Assembly: GCA_024137785.1 (NCBI GenBank)
Contig: JAHRHZ010000267.1
Location: 8,387,342-8,451,341, forward strand
Origin: Ginglymostoma cirratum
Lineage: Eukaryota
DNA length: 64,000 nt
Direction of reading: 5' to 3'
Shown here piece by piece: positions 3,110-21,270 of this stretch (position 1 is the stretch's first letter; every line of letters starts with the position of its first letter). Below the pieces are notes generated by a model. It was not told where the DNA came from. It was given only the letters and a program-made list of their open reading frames with translations, and searched no databases. Made by a program: the position numbers and the translations under genes.

Positions 3110-3545
3110 ATAGGTTATAGCGTCATACAACAAGGAAACAAACCCTTCAGTCCAACTCATCCAAGCTGACCATGTTCCCAAACTAAACTAGTCTCACTTG
3201 CCTGTATTTGGCTCATATCCCTCCAAACCTTTCCTATTCTTGTACCTCTCCAAATATGTTTTAAATTTTGTATCTGCACATGCATCCACCACTTCTTCTG
3301 GCAATTCATTCCACATATGAACCAGTCTTTTTGCAAAAAAGGTGCTCCTCGTGTCCTTTTTAAATCTTTCTCCTCTCACCTTAAAAATATGCCCCCTAGT
3401 TTTGAACTCCCCCACCCTAGGGAAAAGACCCTTGCTATTCACCTTGTTTATGGCTCTGATGAATTCAAAAACCTTAGTAATGTCCTCAACCTCCTGCACC
3501 CCAGTGAATAAAGTCCCAGCCTATCTTTATAACTCAAATCTTCCA
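3110..3545 (-). mobile_element. CR1/HER1 LINE 3' fragment
   Basis: LFPRVGEFKTRGHIFKVRGERF...WNELPEEVV. Confidence 0.85.
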
Positions 3546-3823: not shown

Positions 3824-4170
3824 TTTTTCTAAAGTTATCAGTATGACCAAATATGTTAGCTTTTCTCAGTTATCATGTTTTTCCAAAGTTATCAGTATGA
3901 CCAATTATGTTAGCCTTTGTTATCTCTTCGAGGCTGCTCATCTTCTGCTTCACTTGTTAGCCACAGTTGTTTTCTACCCTAAGATATTGTGCTTTTTCGA
4001 TTATTACATTCATGATTAACTTCTGCCATTATGTTTTCCTAGGACACTCCATCTATTTTATAAATTACCTTTCTACATTTTATATTCTGTGTATTATCTT
4101 TCTATGTATTACTTCATCTACTTTGCGTCCTCTGTATATACTACATATGCACCATTTTATTTTCCATATA
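3824..4170 (-). repeat. ERV 3' LTR, truncated (U3 only)
   Basis: Begins right after the PPT. About 97% identical to the 5' LTR over 310 bp. No counterpart of 12834-12966. Confidence 0.9.
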
Positions 4171-4181
4171 TTCCCCCCTTT
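4171..4181 (-). promoter_or_regulatory. Polypurine tract
   Basis: AAAGGGGGGAA immediately 5' of the 3' LTR. Confidence 0.88.
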
Positions 4182-4416: not shown

Positions 4417-6053
4417 TCAAATGCCGTTGGTCAGACAAGGCTGCTGCACTGTATCAGATGTCAGATCACAATAGTAAAGCGGCGGCGCATCTTCCAGTGG
4501 GGAGACGTGTTCCGAGATGGTGGGAACAACCAAAAGTTGTCTTGCAGCAAGACGCACTACAAGAGACTTAATAAGAGGTAAAGCACAGCAAAACGCAAAG
4601 GCAATAATCATCAACACAATACCTATGATAATCCCAATCTTAGCAAACCAAGCTCCCCACGCCCCCAACGCATTAACCAACCAGTCAAAAACTTCATGGC
4701 CAAAACCAGCATTGTCCTTAAGTTCCTCTCTTAGTTTCCTCAACTTATCCATCGCTTTTGTAAACGAACCTCCAGGGCTAGTATTGTGGGTATAAACGTA
4801 CAACAGTGTTCTCCAAACATTACACAAACTCCCCCTTTTTCAGCTAACATCCAGTCCAAGACCTGTCTGTTTTGCCAGGTCATCTTTGTAGTTGCATCCA
4901 ATTGTTCCCCCAGGGCTGAGAGGGCATCATTGGTATAATTAATAAATCGTTGCTGATTGTAATAGATATAGTTGATCCATTCAGCATTTTTGTTAATGCC
5001 GACCTGCGGGAGGAGAGATTCAAACCCTGCAGCGATCTCATTTCGGGCCTTGAATTCATTGGGGATGCCCCGAGGCTGACCTATGCTATCAATACGCACT
5101 GCTGGGTCAGGGGCATACTCCCGTTTTGGGCGGTGTAAGATCGGCTGTGAAAGAGCATCAAATCGGGCTTGGGGTGACACCACGACTTCGTGAAGGAGCA
5201 TCACTCGAGTGCAGAGACCATCCCAGCCAGAGGGAAGTATCGGTCGTAACCCTCCTTCACTTCCACATAGCCACCATGTATCTGCTAACGGGATTTGCTG
5301 AGAGTGCAGGATAGCGCCAAAAGTCGTAGACACGTCAATGTCAATGGTGTTTCCACATAGTCCCGCAAAGTGGCCTACTGGCGCAGAGCCATTGCGTCTG
5401 AAACATTCAAAACTTAAGCCCTTACGTATTTTAAAATCAGCTATAAGAAACGAGTGGGTAATCTCACTAGTAGACCAGAGAGAGTTGCGTCCACACCACT
5501 GTTGGAGTTGTCGCCTCCTTGTGTCATCATATTGGTAGAACGAGGAAGCTTGAAGGAGCAGACACCAAAACGGACACCGGGGCCATTCATATGTTAATGA
5601 TTTAGTTGGGTCAAATGGTCTCCCCGGATTTTGCAGCCGCCATTGGGCAAGTTGGTGTAACCGCCATTGGGTGCAAGTGGATGAATTATAAGGCGTAGGA
5701 ACAACAAAATACGATGGATTTGCCTTATCACATAAGAAACAATCCTGTCTGGCCAACATCGCTGCTGTATAATTTGCCCATTGATACCAATAATTGTTAC
5801 GGGCTCTTGCCCATGCTAGGAAAGTAGGCTCTACACTTCTGATCTCTCTATGCCTTTTAGTCCTCGCAAAACTAACATTATCAGGCCAGTGCTGCCAAGT
5901 CTGCCAAATTAATGGTTTGTAAGTCTGCACATGAATAGGCGGAGCTAGCACCAGCTGGGGGAGCAGCAACTGTCTCTCCCACCCCATCTCCAGCCAGTTC
6001 ATTAGGAGAAGGACTGTCAGCCGTCGATACCGTATCGACCGACCCTGAGTCAT
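4417..6053 (-). pseudogene. env: ERV env, gamma-type, PABLB/HERV-R(b)-like; single frameshift at about 4787
   Basis: CFLC (5730-5741), furin site RPKR (5121-5132), IDSIGQPRGIPNEFKARNEIAAGFES...INKNAEWINYIYYNQQRFINYT, ISD WQNRQVLDWMLAEKGGVC, CX6CC. The membrane anchor IGIIIGIVLMIIAFAFCC is in the next frame (4417-4827). Confidence 0.92.
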
Positions 6054-9000
6054 CAGTGTCTCCAAAAATCTCACTTACCAATTGGTCAAAATCCCCCCCG
6101 TGGTGAAACAGCTACCTGTTCGTCTGGACTGGCTGTGGCTGTTGACCCTTCCCCTGTACTCACCTCAGCATCGGAGTCAGGCTGTGCTGGTGAAATGGCT
6201 CTAGTACAATGATTAAGATGATACCACGTATGTCTTCCCTCCACTTGAATAGCAGTGGGTGACGCCTTGACCACTGTGAAGGGTCCTTCCCGTCTTGGCT
6301 CGTTCCACTTCCTTCGGAAAACTCGCACGTATACCTGATCTCCGGGTCGGATGGGTCCCTCCTCTTTATCAGGTACCGGCTCTTTTTGTTTTTCCTGTGT
6401 GTAGATAGACTTGTGTATCATAGTTCGTTGCTGCATATACTGCTTAAGTTCTCTTTCCAACTGTTCCAGGCTGGGGCCTTCGTAGGGACCCCTCCACTTG
6501 GGTACCGGCATGGGCCTACCAGTAAGCATTTCATGTGGAGTTAGATTTGTCATGCGGTTAGTTTGCATGCGGTAACTCATCAGTGCTAACGGCAGTGCAT
6601 CTATCCAATTAAGATTAGTACTTGCACAAATCTTATTCAGTTTAGCTTTTAAGGTTCCATTAATCCTTTCCACCATACCTTGTGATTGTGGATGATAGAC
6701 ACATCCAAACCTTTGTTTAATTCTTAAGGCCTGCAGCACCAGCTTGACCACTTTTTGGATGAAAGCAGACCCATTGTCTGAACTGATCTCTGAAGGTATG
6801 CCAAACCGCGGAATAACTTCATTTGTTAGAAACTTCACTACTGTCCCTGCCCCTGTATCCTTTGATGGAGTCGCCTCCACCCACCTACTGAACCTGTCAA
6901 TCATACCAACATATATCGTTTCCCCCTTACTGTTTTTATCATGTCCACATAGTCAATTACCAAATGTTTGAAATGTCCTTCAGGTACTGGTATGTGTCCT
7001 ATAGGGGTTGTAATTCCCTTTCTAATGTTGTTTTGTGCACACACCTCACATTGCAACAGCATATAATCCACTGAAGCTTGTAAATAGGGTGACCAAAAAC
7101 CATCCTTCTTTATCTTCCTCATTACTTCTCCTCTAGCACAATGATCTAACCCATGTGCTTCCGAAATAAGGATTGTCAGCAAACGGGTGGGTGCAACCCA
7201 TAAGCCCTCTTCCGTGCTCCACACACCTTCTGGGTTCTGCCTGGCCACCCCTTTATTTCCACAATGTTTGTTCTGCTAGGGTGGCCTTATTCTGAATTTC
7301 AATAACGTCAGCTATGGTGGGCTCTGGGTCTAAGCTTACCTGGGGTGCAATAACAGCTGAAGTGCAGCCAGAGGCCATCCTCGCTGCTTCATCTGCGGCC
7401 TGGTTGCCTTTTATGACCATGTCACTCCCTTTCCTATGTGCCTGGCATTTAATAACAGCTAGGGCCTTTGGTTTCATCATGGCAGTTGTCAGTTCCACGA
7501 TCTGCTGACAGTGCTGTATGGGATCTCCGTTACTTTTCCTAAAGCCTCTTTGTTTCCATACTGCCCCAAATAGGTGGCATACCCCATGAGCATAGGCAGA
7601 GTCAGTGTATATGTCTGCTTTCTTACCTTCCATCAACTCACAAGCTGCTGTCAGTGCCTTAATTTCAGCCAGTTGTGCTGAACAAGGTTGTGGGCAAGTT
7701 TCCAGTTTGATGGTTTTAAACTGGGAGTGTTCATACATAACAACAGAGAATCCTGCATGATTCCTGTCATAGTCCCTATAGCATGAACCATTTACAAATA
7801 AAATCATTTTGTCTTTGTCAGACAATGGCTCAGACTGTAAATCAGCCCTTAATTTAGCAAACGTGGTTACTTCCCTGACACAGTCATGTGGCTCCCCTTC
7901 GTACTCTAATGGGACATAGTCTGCTATATTCCTTGTGCTGCATCTCTGTATAGTAATGTCTGGGAATGTCAATAACATTCTGTATGCTAGTATTCTAGCA
8001 GGTGTCAATACAAACTGTCCTTTCTCGAGCAACTCTACTACTCTATGGTGTGTATGTAGAGCAACAGGGTAGCCCATTGTCACCGAGGACGCTTTCTCAT
8101 AAGCAAAATGCGCTGCTGCTAGTCCCTGATAGCATGGTGGATAACCCTGCACTACTTCATCCAGTCGGGTACTGTAATACGCAATAGGCTGCTTAGGCCT
8201 TCCTACGCCTGCTTCTTGCGTGAGTACTGCAGCTGCATATCCTCCCTGTCTATTGGACACATAAAGATGAAATGGTCTCTCATAGTCAGGCAAAGCCAAT
8301 GCTGGGGCTGACTGTAGTGCCTGTTTGAGAGTGTTAAAGGCTGTTGCAGCCTCCTCATTCCATATTAACTCATTTTTCAGGTGTGAGTGTCCAGCTTCCT
8401 TCATTATTCTCCTCAGGGGTGCCGTAATCTCGGTGTATTCCCCTATCCAATCTGAGCTAAATCCTGCCATTCCTAAGAAGGTCATCATCTGTCCCACCGT
8501 CTTAGGTCTAGGGGCTCTTGTGATTGCCTCTATCTGATTTGGGGCAATCATCTTGGTCCCTTGGGAGATCAATCTACCCAAATATTCAACCTGCTGCTTG
8601 CAAAACTGTAACTTTTTTCTGGACACCTTATGCCCTCCACTGGCTAGCTTTTCCAGGAGGAAAAGGGTATCCTGCTCACATTGCTCCTGGCTTTCTGAGC
8701 AGACCAAAAGATCATCAACATATTGGATTATCGTACTTTTCAACATCATGCCCTCTAAATCTGCCTTTAGGACTTGATTGAATACATGTGGTGAGTGTTT
8801 AAACCCCTGCGGCATTCTGGTATAAGTATATTGCTGGCCCCTGTACGTGAAAGCAAACAGATACTGGCCGTGTTGTGCCAGTGGAATACTGAAGAAAGCA
8901 GAGCACATAAATCAACAACTGAAAACCAAGCTGTCTGCGCGGGCACATTGGTTAGTAATGTATGAGGGTTTGGAACCACAGCTGGCCAATCCTCTACCAC

Positions 9001-10238
9001 TTCATTTACTGCTCTCAAATCATGCACAAGCCTCCATTTTGATCCATCTGCCTTGAAGACTGGTAGTAATGAAGTGTTGCAGGGACTACTTGTTTCCCTA
9101 AGTACTCCTGCTTCCAATAATCCCTGTATTGTTGCTGCTATCCTTCCTCTGCTTCCGGTTTTAGGGGGTATTGTGGCCTTCTAGGTGGGATAGCCCCTTT
9201 CTTTAACCTTATTTCTACTGGACTTGCTGACATCACTTTCCCCACATCAGTACCATGCTGGGACCGTAACATAACTGGCAATGTATCCAATCGTCCATCT
9301 CTTTGTTGCTCATTTTCTTTAGCTATGACTGGCATAACCGTTGGGGAGTCACTTCGACCTCTTTTGGATTTCCCATCATGTTTATGCATACTGCAATTTT
9401 AACATAATCATTGCTCCTGGACTTCCAGATGCCTGACTCTGTTATTCGCCAGTCACTGATTGTTTCTGCTTTCTTTATCATGGGGCCTAAATCTTTGGAT
9501 TGATATCCCTCATTTACCAACAATGTCACATGAGGTGCGGCTCCTGGTACACTGTACCATTTTTCCAGGAATTCATTTTTCCTTATTTGCAACGCCGCTC
9601 CCTGCTGTCCTACTATTATGGCTTCGCTTGTCAAATGCTGCTGGGTGACAACTGCATCATGCCAGCGTCTTTCTAATGTTTCATCCTGGGTTTCATCAAA
9701 TATTACTGTACAATGCAGTTCAGACTTGGGTGGTTTAGCTTTGGGTATTAATGTTAACACTGCTGTTTTCCATTTTCCCCAAATGTTCCAGATATAGCAC
9801 TCAATGTCTCCTATCCAATATACATTAGCATTTTCTACTTTCTGCATTACTAGCTGAATACTGGCTTGCTCTACACTTACCCCCTGCTCAGTGCATTCTA
9901 ATCTCAGTTCTAACTTCAGTAAAGCATCTCGACCTAGCAAATTAATTGGTGTTCCTTTAGACACTAATATAGGCAAGAATATTTCTCTGCCTTCCATTTT
10001 TAAACTCACTGGAGCTGTAAATCGTGTTAACTGTGATTTACCCTATTGTTTTAACAAATTTTCCTGACATGGGAAGGTGGGAGGCATATTGCGGTTGCAC
10101 GCAAGTGTAAGTTGCCCCAGTGTCTATCATTAGTGGCGTCAACCGTCCCTCTAAACTAACCTGTATAATAGGTTCCTGTTCGGCCTCCCTTGTTATCATG
10201 GGATATTGTCCCTTCCCATCTGGGTTCTCTGGGCACCC
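5881..10238 (-). pseudogene. pol: ERV pro-pol (PR, 2H domain, RT, RNase H, IN), split by about seven small indels
   Basis: In frame with gag after TAG-G. PR MIDTGATY (DTGA 10113-10124) and NLLGRD; RT MPQGF and QYVDD (8711-8722); RNase H FVNGS/SAQLAE/YTDS/GNQAAD; IN HHCC and IDY-SDNG-MVER. Acidic tail to 5881 if the G7 run at about 6096 is a 1-nt insertion, otherwise it ends at 6086. Confidence 0.93.
9400..9830 (-). other. 2H phosphoesterase (CNPase-like) domain inside Pol, between protease and RT
   Basis: Paired HxT motifs ELHCTVIF (HCT 9707-9715) and APHVTLLV (HVT 9524-9532), 61 aa apart, resembling CNP LHCTT / AHITL. Confidence 0.82.
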
Positions 10239-12231
10239 CTAGCTCATCCCGTATGGGTTGACAGGCCCCATCGGACCTGCAAGCGTTTGTGGTGGGGCTG
10301 CCAGGGGTCCTTTGCGCATTGGTCCATTTTGGGACGGGGAGGTCCAATTCCAGTATGGGCAGTTCCTCCTAAAGTGACCTGGTTGATAACACCCCCAACA
10401 TATTATTTCTGACCCCCCTTGCACCTGCCCTCTTGTCATATTCCTTGATCCTCCACTCCTTTGTCCCTGTCCTTGGGGACCCCAAGTCTGTCTGGGCTGT
10501 TGTTTAATTTTATTTTTTCCAAGGTAGGGTACCTGTGGAAGGGTTCCCCCAACAATGTATATTGCTGGCATGGGGTTTTCCGGCCCTTGTCTGGCAGTGT
10601 TAATGAGTCCCCCTTGTGCTGGTATCTTTTCTTCGTCAGTGTTGCCCACTGCATTAGTCACTAGGGGCATCATCTTTTTGCCCTTCTCTTTCTCTTTTTC
10701 TTTTGTCTTAAGCTCTTCGAGCTTCATTTGTGACAGCTTTCTTTGTACCTCCTCTTGCTGCTTAGACAATTTCTTTTGATCTTTTCGATAATTTTCGACA
10801 ACATGGACTACATGATCGCTGAATTCCTGGTGGGCCCTTGACATTAGGCCCACCACTTCCTCCAGCTTTGTTCTGACTTGGGTGGGCAATGCCTCAATGA
10901 TAGCGGTTCTGAACATTGCAGTCAGCATTTGATTGCCCTCAATTTCTTGTTCTGTTTCCAGCCTCCATTTTCTCAGTTGCCTTTCTACATAGGCTGCTGG
11001 GTTTTCAGAGTCCCCCAGTGGTTTCCCCTTCAGAATCTTGGGGTCAAACTTGGGTGGGTAAAAGTCTCTCAGGGCCTGCCATACCCTGTGTCTGACTTGG
11101 TCAAATCCAGCCCCATCGACCATCGGATTGTCTGCCACATTCCTTAGACCAGCTTGGTCAAAAATTTCTTTTAATTTTGGGAGGTCCATTATCCTTACAA
11201 GCAATGCCTTCATATCACCCATAGCCAGCAATTTTCCTATGGTCTCATCCTCAAAAGCTCTAATCCATTTTCCTGCCCCTTCATGTAAACTGGGCAATGC
11301 AGTTTTTAGTCCTTCCAGATCCTGGGTCCCCCAAGGAATATACTGCGGTGGTCTTTCCCCTTTTATAAGTAGTGGCAACATTTTTCCCTGTTGAGATTTC
11401 TTTCTTTTAGTCTGTTTGTCACATTGTGATTCGGTTTCAGACTCTGATTCTGATTCTGTTTCTAATTCCTCCCATCCTTTTTTCTCTGGCTCTACTCTGA
11501 TCTCACCTCTAACCTGCTCTTCCACATTCCCTTTTTCTGTCACTTCCTTCTCACTTCGTTTTTTCTTAACTCTCCTTGTACGATTCAAATATTCCTCATA
11601 CTCCCTCTGTTCTCTTAATACACGTAGCACATCAATTTCATGTCTCAATTCTCGCTGTTTACTCTGTATATCCTCTATCTCCTGCTGCCTTGCCTTTTGC
11701 TCTATCTCCCTTTTTTCCCTTAACGCATTCTTTTCTCTTTCTTTTTTTCCCCCATTTCAACTCCCCTTCTATTTCTACAGTCCCTTTTATTGCTGGACAC
11801 TGTTTTGTGCTTTCGCCATCAGAGTAAGGAGGGGGTCTATCCACCTCTTCCAAATTTGGGTATAAGGACGGGCTCTTTCCCTGTCCTTTAGTTTCCACAG
11901 GCTGTTTAGTCTGCTCTTTGGCTGCACTCCTGGTTACAACTGGCGCTTGGTAAGCTCTTCTCAGCTTCACTCCTTCTTCCCTAAACAGCTTTAGCATTTC
12001 TGCCTCCTTTTCCCTTTTCTGACTCCTTTTCTTAGATTTATCTCTGGGTTTGTAATTTTTAATTAAGCATTCCATTTCCTCACACATATTTACATCAAAA
12101 GTTCCCTCTTTTGGCCATTTAGTTAGTAATTTGTCAGTTCTTTTTCCCCATTTTTCTGAAATTTTTACTATCTCATCCTTTGCCATTGGAAATTTTTTAC
12201 CCAGTATTTCAACTGCAGTCCGTTTGTCCAT
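10239..12231 (-). pseudogene. gag: ERV gag, one frameshift near 11745
   Basis: Start ACCATGG at 12231. Late-domain motifs LYPNL (11851-11865) and PPPY (11824-11835), a capsid-like region, and a single CCHC knuckle CWGCYQPGHFRRNC (10359-10400). Ends TAG 10239-10241. Frame change in a G5A7 run. Confidence 0.9.
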
Positions 12232-12699
12232 GGTCAAGTTCAGTCAAGAAAGTTATCAGTCAGTCCTACCTCTAATTCTACACACAAATCCAGACACACT
12301 GTTACTAAGATACGCTTTTCTTTACTCGTTTTGCCCGTGTAGTCCCCTACTTTTTCAGGGCAGTATCCACCTAACCCTGTAGAACTTGGTATTAGAAACA
12401 GTACTATTCTGCTTGTTCTGCCCGTACAGACCCCTATCATCCCAGGGCGGTATCCGCAGAACCTCACAAACACCACGTGGAATTTTAAGTCAACCAGTTG
12501 CTGTGTTCTATGCTTACATATCCCGTCCCCCACTGTGCAGTCTTCCTTGAACAGTTCTCTGCGTCTCCTTCAATTACAATTTACCACCCGCTACTTGGAT
12601 CTTTTTGGGCGGAGAGACCCTTTGGCAATTTTCCCGCACTTCTGAGTCCCCGAGGTCCCCCTTGACTTAACAGAATGCAGTCCGAATTAACAGCAAAAC

Positions 12700-12811: not shown

Positions 12812-12829
12812 ACCCTGCTTGCTGCGCCA
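12812..12829 (-). promoter_or_regulatory. Primer binding site, tRNA-Ser(UGA)-type
   Basis: TGGCGCAGCAAGCAGGGT, 4 nt after the LTR; 17/18 match to the complement of the vertebrate tRNA-Ser 3' end (TGGCGCAGCGAGCAGGGT). Confidence 0.85.
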
Positions 12830-12833
12830 AATT

Positions 12834-13278
12834 TGTCGTGGAGAATCACCAGGAGACGTAGAGGAGTCTTCAAGAACGTAAACTTTTATTTGCAAACAAA
12901 AGCTGTGACAATCAGAAAGTAGCTTTCAGATCGCCCGCGCCCCTCAGGGCCTGTTCTTCTTTATGCCTTTTCTCAATTATCATGTTTTTCTAAAGTTATC
13001 AGTATGACCAATTATGTTAGCCTTTGTTATCTCTTCAAGGCTGCTCATCTTCTGCTTCACTTGTTAGCCACAGTGGTTTTCTACCCTAAGATATTGTGCT
13101 TTTTCGATTATTACATTCATGATTAACTTCTGCCATTATGTTTTCCTAGGACACTCCATCTATTTTATAAATTACCTTTCTACACTCTATATTCTGTGTA
13201 TTATCTTTCTATGTATTACTTCATCTACTTTGCGTCCTCCGTATATACTACATATGCACCATTTTATTTTCCATACCA
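12834..13278 (-). repeat. ERV 5' LTR (about 445 bp)
   Basis: Ends ...CACGACA just before the PBS. AATAAA at 12885-12890 (minus) and TATA-like CATAAAG near 12959-12965. 12968-13277 matches 3861-4170. Confidence 0.92.
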
Positions 13279-15636: not shown

Positions 15637-17814
15637 TCCCTTATGGACCAGCCTGCTGTGGGTTGGGGGGGCACTGGGCCCTCGACTTAACTTAGTCTCA
15701 TTGATGGAGAGGCAACTCATTTTTACCTCCGAAATCGTCTTCTGATTTAGCTTTGTATAGTCAGCAAACGTAAGTGATTTGTGGTGCCTTTGTCTGTGAA
15801 TATAGATTGTAAATTGCTGAGGTCCCTGCATTGATCTTTGCCAGACCTCACTAGTTGAAACCTGCCAGTTTAAAAGCCTTGCTCTCTGCTTCCTGTCTGT
15901 CTCAATCAATCCTCCACATTCACATTCAAATAAGTTGCTGTCTTCAATGATTAATGCAAATGAACTACCAGCAACTTTCAATCATGTATACTCTTTCTAG
16001 CTGGGCCATTATATCGATATTACCATCGCTCATCATTTCTGCCAAAATGCATCTCCTCATACGTCTTTGGATGAAATCCCATTTGCCCGTTTGCCCAGCC
16101 TATCCATCGCACAGAAGTCAAATGTCTCTTCTTTAAAGGTCTCCTTTTGAGATTTTCTCGAGGGCTACATCTCGATTTTTTGAGGCTTCTTTTTGGTTCT
16201 CAGGGGCTCCTTTTCCATTCTCACTCACACCTTCATTAGGTGTTGCGGTCATGTGGTAACATTATCTTCTGTACTTGTGTTGACAAGTGCAGTATTTGAC
16301 CTCACTCAGAAGCAGAATTTGAAGAATTCATCAAATCCTCAAGAGTGACGATCCCTCCTTTAAACATAAAGATGTCACATACAAGGTAAGCATTAGCATT
16401 GTTGGCACAAATTTAAATCGGTATAAGGTAATAGGCAGAAGTTAGAAACAAAAGCATTTTTTTCCCAAAATAACAGATAAACACTGCAACACAGAAAATT
16501 ACTATTCCAAACATACTCTCCACACTGGTGACGTCACAGCTAATACGGTTTCATTGCATATGCTTGAAGTTGGACGATTTTAACCAGGCAGTTATTATCT
16601 TTATTTATTATATCTTATTTCAATTTCAAATTTAAATTTAACAATTTATCTAGCACTGATTTTAATCAGGCATTAATTGCTATTTGCGTATAAGAGTTCT
16701 AAACTTCTTCCAGCCATCTTGTAGAAATGTTTCCTAAATTCACTCCTGAAGGTCCACTGGATTTAATTTTCAGATTATGCTCCTCTGCCCTAGACTCCAT
16801 TAAATTAATTGTTAGCTGACTCAATTCATTCTTATTCCAGTATAATATCAAATCGTACTTCTAAGTATTTCCTTCGCTGACCAACACTGTGAAATCTTGA
16901 AGTCATGAAAAGTACTATTAAAAATGCAGTTGTTTATTGTTGTTTGGGCCCTTGTTGGATGCAAAAACATTGCAGGTTTATCTCTAACACAGTCCTTGCA
17001 TCTCTGGTATTCATGGTATGCAAAATGTTTTGAGAGATGGTAGCACAAATGTGAAACTTGTTCTTATGAAGTAGATCTATTCAGTATTAAATTATCCAAA
17101 TAATACAGTGCGCATTAGAATACCATCCACTGCTTTCTTCTTCATACTGTAGCTCTTAAATTTACACAGCCTTAAGCCAAAGACTCCACATCCACTTTCA
17201 AGGAATTTATTGTCTCAGAGACTTCAAGTTTTTTTTGACCACTATTAAGTTTAGCTGACAAGGTTAAAGCCACGCTTTTTGCTTCATAACCTCTCCCCTT
17301 CCTCACCTTCTCCATCTCTAGTCCCATCATTGCAGTCTTTCTCTTTCAGCAACCACTCCTCCTCTAATAGCCTCTACTGCCAGCAACCATTGTCTCCCTT
17401 GCAGCCCTTCCACACAGCAACATCTCCTCACGGCAGGCTTGTTCCCATCAGTCTTTCTTCACTGTATCTCTTCTGTGGTAGCCTCTGTCCCCAGAAGAAC
17501 CTCTTGCCCACAGCCTCTCACACTGCCACAGGTATGGTGCTTAGGCTGATGACCTTCCCAGCATTCACTTTTCCACTGCTTATTGCTCCTGCAATCACAG
17601 GCTGTTTCTCTCCCGCGTTTCTGCACCAGTCAGCCAATCAGCAGCAAATGCACCCTTAACATCAACTTCCCCGCTCCTCTGGTGCTGCCTGGCCTGCTGT
17701 GTTCCTCCGGCTCCACACCTTTGATGTCACAGGAGAGAAACAGCCCGTGATTGGAGAGCACCCCCTCCCAGATTCTGTTGTTTCCATGTACAGCGCTTCT
17801 TTTCTATTATTATA

Positions 17815-18170
17815 CAATCATACAGCACGGAAATGGCCCAACCATGCCGACTATAATCCCAAACTAAACTGGTCCCTCCTGCCTGCGGTTGGCCCATATC
17901 CCTCCAAACATTTCTTACTCATGTCCTCATCTAAATGTCTTTTAAAACTTGTAACTGTATCTGCATCCATCACTTTCTCAGGCAGTTCACTCCACACACG
18001 AACCATTTTCTGCATTAAGAAAAATTGCCCCCATGTCTTTTTTAAGTCTTTCTCCTCTCACCTTAAAAATATGCCCCCTATTCTTGAAATACTCCATCCT
18101 AGGGAAAAGCCGACTGCCATTCATCTTATCTACACCTCTCATGATTTTTTAAACCTCTATAAAGTCACCT
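17815..18170 (-). mobile_element. CR1/HER1 LINE 3' fragment
   Basis: Near copy of 3110-3545. Confidence 0.8.
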
Positions 18171-18297
18171 CTCTATTTCATTGGTCACTCCCACAATTGA
18201 ATTTTCCAGGGCCTTTTGGCCCATTCGGTATGATGTTGCACATTAAATCTGTGCATTTTGAACTCTTCCTTGTAAAGCTGCAGGTAATATGTACCAT

Positions 18298-18410
18298 TGA
18301 GGTTGTAGACATGCTCGCCAAGCCGATGGGTTCAGTTGCAGATGGTAGCTCGCAGATGGGAAACAAACGCAACTAAACCTACCAGCTTGGCGAGCATGTC
18401 TACAACCTCA
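18298..18410. repeat. Inverted repeat (26-bp perfect arms), probably from a Penelope-like terminal repeat
   Basis: tgaggttgtagacatgctcgccaagc (18298-18323) is the exact reverse complement of 18385-18410. Confidence 0.8.
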
Positions 18411-19924: not shown

Positions 19925-21270
19925 GAAGTTATAGAGCTGTACAGCATAGAAAAAGACCCTTTGGCCCAACTCGTCCATGCTAAATTAACATATACTAAAT
20001 TAATCTAGTCCCATTTGGCAACATTTGGCTCATATCCCTCTAAACCCTTCCTATTTAAATACCCATCCAGATGCCTTTTAAAGCCTCCATGACTTCCTCT
20101 GGCAGCTCATTCCATACACGCAACACCCTCTGCATGAAAAAGTTGCCCCTCAGGTCCCTTTTAAATCTTTCCCCTCTCACCTTAAACCTATGTCTTCTAG
20201 GTTTGGACTCCTCCACCCCAGGGAAAAGACCTTGGTTATTCACCATATCTATGCCCCTTATGATTATATAAACCTCTATAAGTTCACCCCTCAGCCTCCG
20301 ATGCTCCAGGGAATTTAGCCCCAGCCAATTCAGCCTCTCCTGATAACTCAAACCCTCCAAATGTGGCAACATCCTTGTAAATCTTATCTGAATCATTTCA
20401 AGTTTCACAATATCCTTCCTATAGCAAGGAGACCAAAATTGAATGCAGTATTCCAAAAGTGGCCTAACCAATGTCCTGTACAGCCGCAACATGCAACCCA
20501 ATTTGTATACTCAATGCACTGACCAGTAAAGGCAAGCATACCAAATGCCTTCTACCTGGGACTCCACTTTAAAGGAACTATGAGCCTGCACTCCAAAGTC
20601 ACTTTGTTCAGCAACACTCCCCAGGACCTTACCATTAAGTGTATAAGTCCTGCCCTGATTTGCCTTTCCAAAATGCAGCACCTCACATTTATCTAAATTA
20701 AACTACATCTGCTACTCCTTGGCCCATTGGCCCGTCTGATCATGGTCCCATTGTACTCTGAGATTAACTTCTTCATTGCCCATTACACCTCTAATTTTGG
20801 TGTCATCTGCAAACTTACTCACCATAACTCCTACATTCACATCCAAAGCATTTATATAAATGATGAAAAGCAGTGAACCCAGCAACAATCCTTGTGGCAC
20901 ACCGCTGGTCACAGGCCTCCAGTCAGAAAAGCAACCATCCACCAACATCCTCTGCCTCCTACCTTTGTGCCAGTTCTATATCCAAATGACTAGTTCTCCC
21001 TGCAGTCCATGTGATCTAACCTTGCTAACCAGTCTACCATGAAGAACCTTGTTGAATGCCTTACTGAAGTCCGTATAGATTATGTCCACTGCTCTGCCCT
21101 CATCAGTCCCCTTCGTCACTATCTGAAAAAAACTCAATCAAGTTAGTGAGACATGATTTCCCATGCACAAAGCCTCGTTGACTATTTCGAATCAGTCCTT
21201 GCCTTTCCAAATACATTTAAATCCTGTCCCTAAGGATCCCCTTCAACAAGTTGCCCACCAGTGATGTCAG
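19925..21270 (-). mobile_element. CR1/HER1 LINE, RT and C-terminal part
   Basis: VTSGVPQG, SKFADDTK, LYRTLVRPLLEYCIQFWSP, WNELPEEV. Confidence 0.92.

Follow-up and report, generated by a model that had tools for sequence, protein, structure and literature searches.

A predicted CNPase-fold 2H domain in the Pol protein of an epsilon-like endogenous retrovirus of the nurse shark

Fish retroviruses are the closest described carriers of the kind of domain considered here. A review credits WDSV with 2H domains (PMC9503650, citing Mazumder et al. 2002), and CNPase or macro domains have been described from teleost epsilon-like endogenous retroviruses (ERVs) (PMC4977317, citing Basta et al. 2009). 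The first-pass annotation of the present locus mentioned a computational record of a 2H domain in teleost ERV polyproteins, and PMC4977317 bears this out. CNP itself descends from tRNA-healing enzymes, and both CNP and the tRNA-healing CPDases convert 2',3'-cyclic phosphates to 2'-phosphates (PMC4643303, PMC5434554; additional background in PMC3185560 and PMC7471995). The same annotation knew of no functional work on the domain and of no elasmobranch description, and our literature search, which took in few subscription papers and no supplements, whose ERV tables may list sharks, found neither. Elephant-shark ERVs are described in PMC4422223, the first part of which does not mention the domain, and in the part of PMC10835031 used here, which deals with viral AKAP7-like phosphodiesterases (PDEs), the terms “retro”, “fish” and “CNP” are absent.

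The shark element resembles WDSV and the teleost epsilon-like ERVs in kind, in the fold call and in the position of the domain between protease (PR) and reverse transcriptase (RT), as in the teleost ERVs; the host, on the other hand, is a shark. It lies in a stretch of 64,000 nucleotides of the Ginglymostoma cirratum genome (contig JAHRHZ010000267.1, positions 8,387,342 to 8,451,341), referred to below as the window, and is oriented on the minus strand in the order 5' LTR, PBS-like stretch, gag, TAG junction, pro-pol, env and truncated 3' LTR (Table 1). The gag-TAG-pro-pol readthrough junction, single CCHC knuckle, MLV-type integrase C-terminus and gamma-type env mark it as an epsilon-like (class I) ERV, and in a tree drawn without a reference epsilonretrovirus the shark RT groups with the RTs of teleost ERVs. 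The PBS-like sequence may correspond to the 3' end of a tRNA-Ser. At the other end, a purine tract near 4171-4181 precedes the 3' LTR, which breaks off after ~309 nt, a 37-nt stretch from inside the LTR being repeated beyond it (window 3824-4168), so that the right LTR end and the target-site duplication have been lost. Several copies of one common interspersed repeat, 63-77% alike, lie beside the provirus at 3158-3520, 17660-18376 and 19997-20275 and look like LINE/SINE 3' fragments.

Table 1. Features of the provirus, in window coordinates
Feature	Position	Strand	Basis or remark
5' LTR	12833..13275	-	inner end inferred from adjoining primer-binding site
PBS-like sequence beginning TGG	12812..12829	-	adjoins 5' LTR
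gag over two frames (ORFs 11659..12243, 10239..11756)	10242..12243	-	one CCHC knuckle near 10389-10400
TAG at gag/pro junction, then GGG; readthrough-type	10239..10241	-	TAG in 35/44 copies
Retroviral protease (IDTGA 10113-10127, NLLGRD 9926-9943)	9860..10200, ends approximate	-	motifs in different frames here
QLVMQ linker, candidate protease cleavage site PR/domain	9842..9856	-	Gln-hydrophobic pattern
Predicted CNPase-type 2H phosphoesterase domain, ~170 aa, in Pol between protease and RT	9326..9850	-	motifs, AlphaFold model and fold matches
First catalytic motif HCT (in ELHCTVIF; ELHCTV 9704-9721)	9707..9715	-	Phe at H+5 = CNP Phe235
Second catalytic motif HVT (in APHVTLL; APHVTL 9521-9538)	9524..9532	-	sequence
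RT-RNase H, several frames (PPRRPQYPL 9162-9188, LVHDLR 9013-9030, YVDD 8711-8722)	7253..9250, upper end approximate	-	
Integrase (H2C2, rve, MLVIN_C), two frames	6086..7275	-	domain scan
env (TLV_coat; CX6CC in TM), two frames	4420..6074	-	domain scan
Truncated 3' LTR	3860..4168	-	97.7% identity to 5' LTR over 309 nt

The insert between PR and RT carries two HxT motifs, the histidines of which are spaced 61 aa apart in a single stop-free frame (ORF 9323..10042, minus strand, 239 aa) that reads through the protease C-terminus before entering the insert. Both motifs, claimed at the outset to lie between protease and RT with no intervening stop, are found at exactly the positions then given, while the size of ~200 aa proposed for the insert has to be reduced to ~170 aa for the folded part. 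Upon shuffling the insert 20,000 times, two Hx[TS]-hydrophobic motifs 50-110 aa apart are obtained in 69 cases. After HVT come a loop and a helix (SKDLGPM) that align with helix alpha7 of CNP. The frame of the domain in the window differs from both the upstream protease DTG frame and the downstream RT-start frame, which means that no Pol containing the domain can come from this locus. Each of gag, pol and env is, moreover, broken over more than one frame, and the window copy is dead. Of two RNA runs, one gives 19 reads over 8900-10300, in both orientations and mostly less than 99% alike, and the other none; among the records of domain-bearing sequences, none is on record as RNA.

Within the nurse shark genome, 63 matches were found among 82 scored candidates, which sets a minimum and should not be read as the number of copies, and 44 loci were analysed, namely the 30 best and 14 chosen from lower rows. 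Conservation of the HxT pair across copies and dN/dS had been proposed beforehand as checks. The pair is intact in 38 of the 44 copies, every departure being a change confined to a single copy, and the dN/dS of the insert is 0.09-0.20 over five between-subfamily pairs, which share sequences and hence are not independent. For the same five pairs the values are 0.03-0.07 for PR, 0.03-0.08 for RT and 0.14-0.90 for the C-terminal part of gag. Together with a bootstrap upper bound on insert pN/pS of ≤0.39, the dN/dS values point to purifying selection on the insert while the family replicated.

Beyond the shark, an exhaustive homologue search returned 197 clusters at E≤0.001, of which the best 150 were used. 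Among the 154 aligned homologues (~25-58% identity), 108 span both motifs; both histidines are kept in 101 of these and both Hx[TS] motifs in 95, with a spacing of mostly 61-63. Nearest among the relatives with a name come stingray proteins (52-55% identity) and a medaka ERV (36%), and the named teleosts that bear the domain include Danio, Perca, Syngnathus, tilapia and Metynnis. Each of the 13 long homologues that were scanned is a retroviral protein of Pol type possessing an RT, and the homologous domain sits between PR and RT in epsilon or epsilon-like polyproteins. Of 13 teleost-named proteins, some of them close relatives of one another, 12 keep both motifs and one is unaligned; each of the two stingray proteins has one altered motif. 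The shark domain is, then, a new host-group member of the known fish-retroviral domain. As to the database names under which such proteins appear, NCBI gives the name “E3 ubiquitin-protein ligase Siah1 isoform X1” to a Hypanus sabinus protein with ERV protease and 2H domain (P0004), and RAD9B is the name attached to a Sarotherodon Pol (P0089); both look like annotation errors, with ERVs inside gene models. Several teleost ERV proteins (P0089, P0096, P0128 and others) keep PR and the 2H domain while little of RT remains; they may be non-autonomous elements with internal deletions, or products of skips in the gene models.

Conservation in the family is near its highest at the catalytic His and Thr/Ser columns (0.93-0.95), as catalysis predicts, and this bears on the question of whether the domain need be an enzyme at all. 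CNP binds Gag/MA and inhibits the formation of (lentiviral) particles, the host genome has CNP (one exon is 93% identical to its whale shark and 91% to its zebra shark counterpart, in keeping with a shark host), and the domain is located, as part of Gag-Pol, at the assembly site. One could accordingly imagine a mainly non-catalytic role in assembly, in which a Gag- or membrane-binding mimic of CNP offsets restriction by the host protein. The literature examined contains no report of CNP restricting a fish retrovirus, however, and with the catalytic columns so well conserved we judge such a role decidedly unlikely.

Sequence searches by themselves are not enough to recognise the domain. A Pfam scan of the 239-aa ORF leaves all 2H families below cut-off: PF05881 has no match for the window protein and matches only 2 of 88 family members (best E 0.011), and PF08302 gives one sub-threshold match in the 88. 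A search of PDB sequences with the insert returned no match, and with the insert-family profile protease matches only; the PHROGs search with the domain gave nothing significant. On the other hand, a profile-profile comparison with 117 CNPs aligns both motifs with a probability of 95.3% and a score of 56.6, against ≤16.1 for 20 column shuffles and 11.5 for the reversed profile.

The structural comparisons are more telling. An AlphaFold model of the domain, built on an 88-row alignment, has a pLDDT of 94.3 and a pTM of 0.88, with His46 opening strand 47-52 and His107 opening strand 107-112. Foldseek returns 49 PDB matches at E≤0.001, and the 40 of these that are listed are without exception CNPase or RICH; a plant CPDase, at 1.1e-3, leads the remaining 2H enzymes. 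The VIA alignment to 48,161 chains likewise puts CNPase on top, with a Z of 15.3 (165 residues aligned, rmsd 4.0), ahead of drCPDase (9.9), an archaeal ligase (8.9), ns2 (8.2), Acb1 (7.8), VP3 (7.6), plant CPDase (7.6), AKAP18 (7.5) and the penguinpox cGAMP PDE (6.7); 2H enzymes head the top 21 rows. The fungal Trl1 CPD structure is not among the fold matches listed, which does not exclude likeness. A comparison of the model with CNP, AKAP7, ns2, VP3 and Acb1 had been proposed by the first-pass annotation, and it is a 2H fold that is predicted, with CNPase as the best match. The insert almost certainly has the 2H fold, and by closest predicted fold it is placed in the CNPase branch. The ns2, VP3-CTD, Acb1 and penguinpox enzymes are, like the insert, virus-encoded 2H proteins; at Z 6.7-8.2, however, they fall ~7-9 units under CNPase and represent a different 2H branch. 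Assignment to the AKAP7-like viral 2',5'-PDEs was rejected, with AKAP18, ns2 and VP3 all far under CNPase in Z.

Among viral models, the three best matches are an unnamed polyprotein (TM 0.86), WEHV-1 (0.77) and WDSV (0.70), and those labelled Acb1 reach an E of 0.002 at best. The WEHV-1 and WDSV entries (BFVD Q9WHI8 and A4GTG3) are labelled “Envelope polyprotein” and do not display the matched range, so that their Pol identity is our inference; they are probably mislabelled Pol. The insert had been taken to be absent from epsilon Pol, a claim that has to be given up, given these walleye fold matches and the review that names a 2H domain in WDSV.

The nearest clusters in the ESM Atlas are of the tRNA_lig_CPD type (0.96), with a recognition value of 1989 that lies below the 2300 mark and is thus weak. 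These include tRNA-ligase CPDases (PF08302) and stand-alone CPD proteins of Euglenozoa and phage; unlike the tRNA-ligase CPDases, the insert has no ligase or kinase partner. The plant CPDase also raises the matter of NAD metabolism. As an ADP-ribose-1'',2''-cyclic-phosphate phosphodiesterase, the domain would act in NAD/ADPr metabolism, comparable with the macro domains of other teleost ERVs: 2H enzymes do resolve Appr>p (PMC9503650), teleost ERVs encode CNPase or macro domains (PMC4977317), and it is a plant Appr>p CPDase that first follows the CNPs in Foldseek. We consider this very unlikely, the Z of the plant enzyme being only 7.6 and Pfam finding a macro domain neither in the provirus nor in the 13 long homologues.

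How near to CNP the domain stands can be judged residue by residue. With the vertebrate CNPase catalytic domain (PF05881; PDB 2xmi) and goldfish RICH, its best fold match, it has in common the HxT pair, an aromatic at H+5 (Tyr/Phe in 108 of 129 ERV rows, Phe/Tyr in 117 of 117 CNPs) and a Gly plus helix after the second motif, the Gly at H2+15 (helix alpha7) being kept in 135 of 141 rows. It differs in His spacing (61, and mostly 61-63 in the family, versus 79-84), in being embedded in Pol, in the want of a PNK-like N-terminal domain and at two substrate-binding positions: that of CNP Arg307 is occupied by Ala, Val or Thr, and that of Val321 by Lys or Arg in 116 of 142 rows. With Arg307 absent and Val321 replaced by a basic residue, specificity may differ from that of CNP. 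Identity to CNP is only 13-18%. Membership of the vertebrate CNPase family proper (PF05881) was set aside, the gathering score not being reached and the N-terminal PNK-like domain not being present.

The basic residue in place of Val321 is one of several observations that could point to the cGAS-STING pathway. Retroviral cDNA triggers cGAS, and the domain might cleave the 2'3'-cGAMP, or a related cyclic dinucleotide, that is thereby elicited. cGAS is present in the host genome, other viral 2H enzymes (Acb1 and the penguinpox PDE) do cut cyclic dinucleotides, and the sole phage tblastn match that spans both motifs (E 0.2) is Acb1-like. These two enzymes are nevertheless remote in fold, as their Z values show, and a Pol product made by readthrough would be scarce; we regard such a counter-defence as unlikely. 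As an aside on phage 2H genes, an Acb1-like 2H gene of Erwinia phage Hallingskeid (L064:2408-4178) bears the annotation “RNA ligase”; Sir2 and nudix genes follow it immediately, and a nicotinamide phosphoribosyltransferase gene is close by.

The first-pass annotation had also put forward destruction of 2-5A, whereby a 2',5'-phosphodiesterase like that of MHV ns2 or rotavirus VP3 would block RNase L. The domain does belong to a common superfamily with ns2 and VP3, host OAS-domain genes are present (8 exon matches at 2 contigs), and a chimaera has been found to have the pathway in working order (PMC10400998). The fold is, however, CNP-type and not AKAP7-type, to which ancestors the known viral 2',5'-PDEs have been traced (PMC10835031). 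Moreover, OASa and RNase L were lost in ray-finned fishes (PMC10400998), yet the domain is retained there, in exogenous teleost viruses as well as in the 12 teleost-named proteins that keep both motifs. Because ERVs of ray-finned fishes keep both motifs in hosts without OAS-RNase L, 2-5A is unlikely as the conserved substrate; the proposal is weakened on both counts, and we regard it as very unlikely. Of the host genes thought relevant at the outset, OAS and cGAS are there, and RNase L was not found by an exon-by-exon search, which is not evidence of its absence; two KEN-domain loci look like IRE1 (one was compared with the PDB). The OAS loci comprise two tandem units at C98:28344798-28374066 and a further OAS-like locus at C266:43799441-43802590, and one matched OAS exon has an internal stop. 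AKAP7-family exons were also found in the host, in fragmentary form.

We therefore return to the CNP and RNA-healing branch, and to how a retrovirus might have come by such a domain. Capture of a CNP had been suggested. Recent capture of shark CNP was rejected: identity is 18%, and chondrichthyan CNPs score 9-20 bits with the ERV profile as against a mean of 15.5 and a maximum of 24.3 for other CNPs, so that no chondrichthyan preference is seen. Distances in the domain and in RT are correlated (Mantel rho 0.66, p 0.0002, n=23, the window copy and copy L022 having been dropped for want of a single frame), and the shark sequence clusters with Oryzias, Festucalex and three unnamed proteins in domain and RT trees alike, strong support being confined to 5 of 20 inner branches of the former and 4 of 20 of the latter. 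The domain tree thus follows RT, which weakens the idea of a shark-specific capture and, together with the lack of a chondrichthyan preference, argues for one old acquisition. Entry into the viral lineage would have been a single ancient event, from the CNP/tRNA-healing CPDase branch.

Our preferred reading, which we hold with moderate confidence, is that the insert is a conserved Pol domain of predicted CNPase fold, likely turning 2',3'-cyclic phosphates into 2'-phosphates, most likely on the ends of RNA inside the viral core or close to it. The domain is very probably an active enzyme; that it performs cyclic-phosphate chemistry seems reasonably likely, with the reservation that the substrate does not follow from the fold, as the inactive PDE of rotavirus G, with its normal predicted fold, illustrates (PMC10835031). 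The domain would be produced only with Gag-Pol, via readthrough of the TAG stop codon, the mechanism also predicted for WDSV Gag-Pol, and would be packaged in the virion. A Gln-hydrophobic linker is seen by eye at many of 40 PR/domain junctions; it fits the rule of the WDSV protease, the sites of which carry Gln at P2, so that release from PR, by a cut at a Gln-P2 site, is likely; the picture is less clear for separation from RT. The chemistry would be that of CNP, with His as acid/base and the aromatic at H+5 stacking on the base, and the substrates may be primer tRNA or nicked RNA that ends in a cyclic phosphate, or else 2',3'-cNMPs. A scarce packaged enzyme would best suit a local substrate, such as the ends of primer tRNA or nicked RNA. 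We know of no step in retroviral replication that needs such an enzyme, and most retroviruses are without such a domain.

What is new here should be kept in proportion. The domain has been known since 2002/2009 and is common to the type virus of the genus, and the shark example extends its host range only. Purifying selection has nonetheless maintained it in retroviruses of sharks, rays and teleosts, a function study being absent from the literature searched. With its placement beside CNP and the RNA-healing enzymes, and its persistence where hosts lack OAS-RNase L, the choice of likely substrate narrows to 2',3'-cyclic phosphates. More speculatively, and in our estimation improbably, the epsilon-type retroviruses of hosts ranging from sharks and rays to walleye may possess a fourth, so far overlooked Pol enzyme, an anciently captured CNP-type PDE co-packaged with RT that serves as a counter-defence by removing cyclic-phosphate danger signals or by cleaving the cGAMP that viral cDNA elicits; if true, this would be a retroviral enzyme that degrades nucleotide messengers, and its 2H branch would be one that has had no link to immune evasion until now. 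Should activity be found, an enzyme would be added to the retroviral Pol toolkit, and it might inform the question of the physiological substrate of vertebrate CNP.
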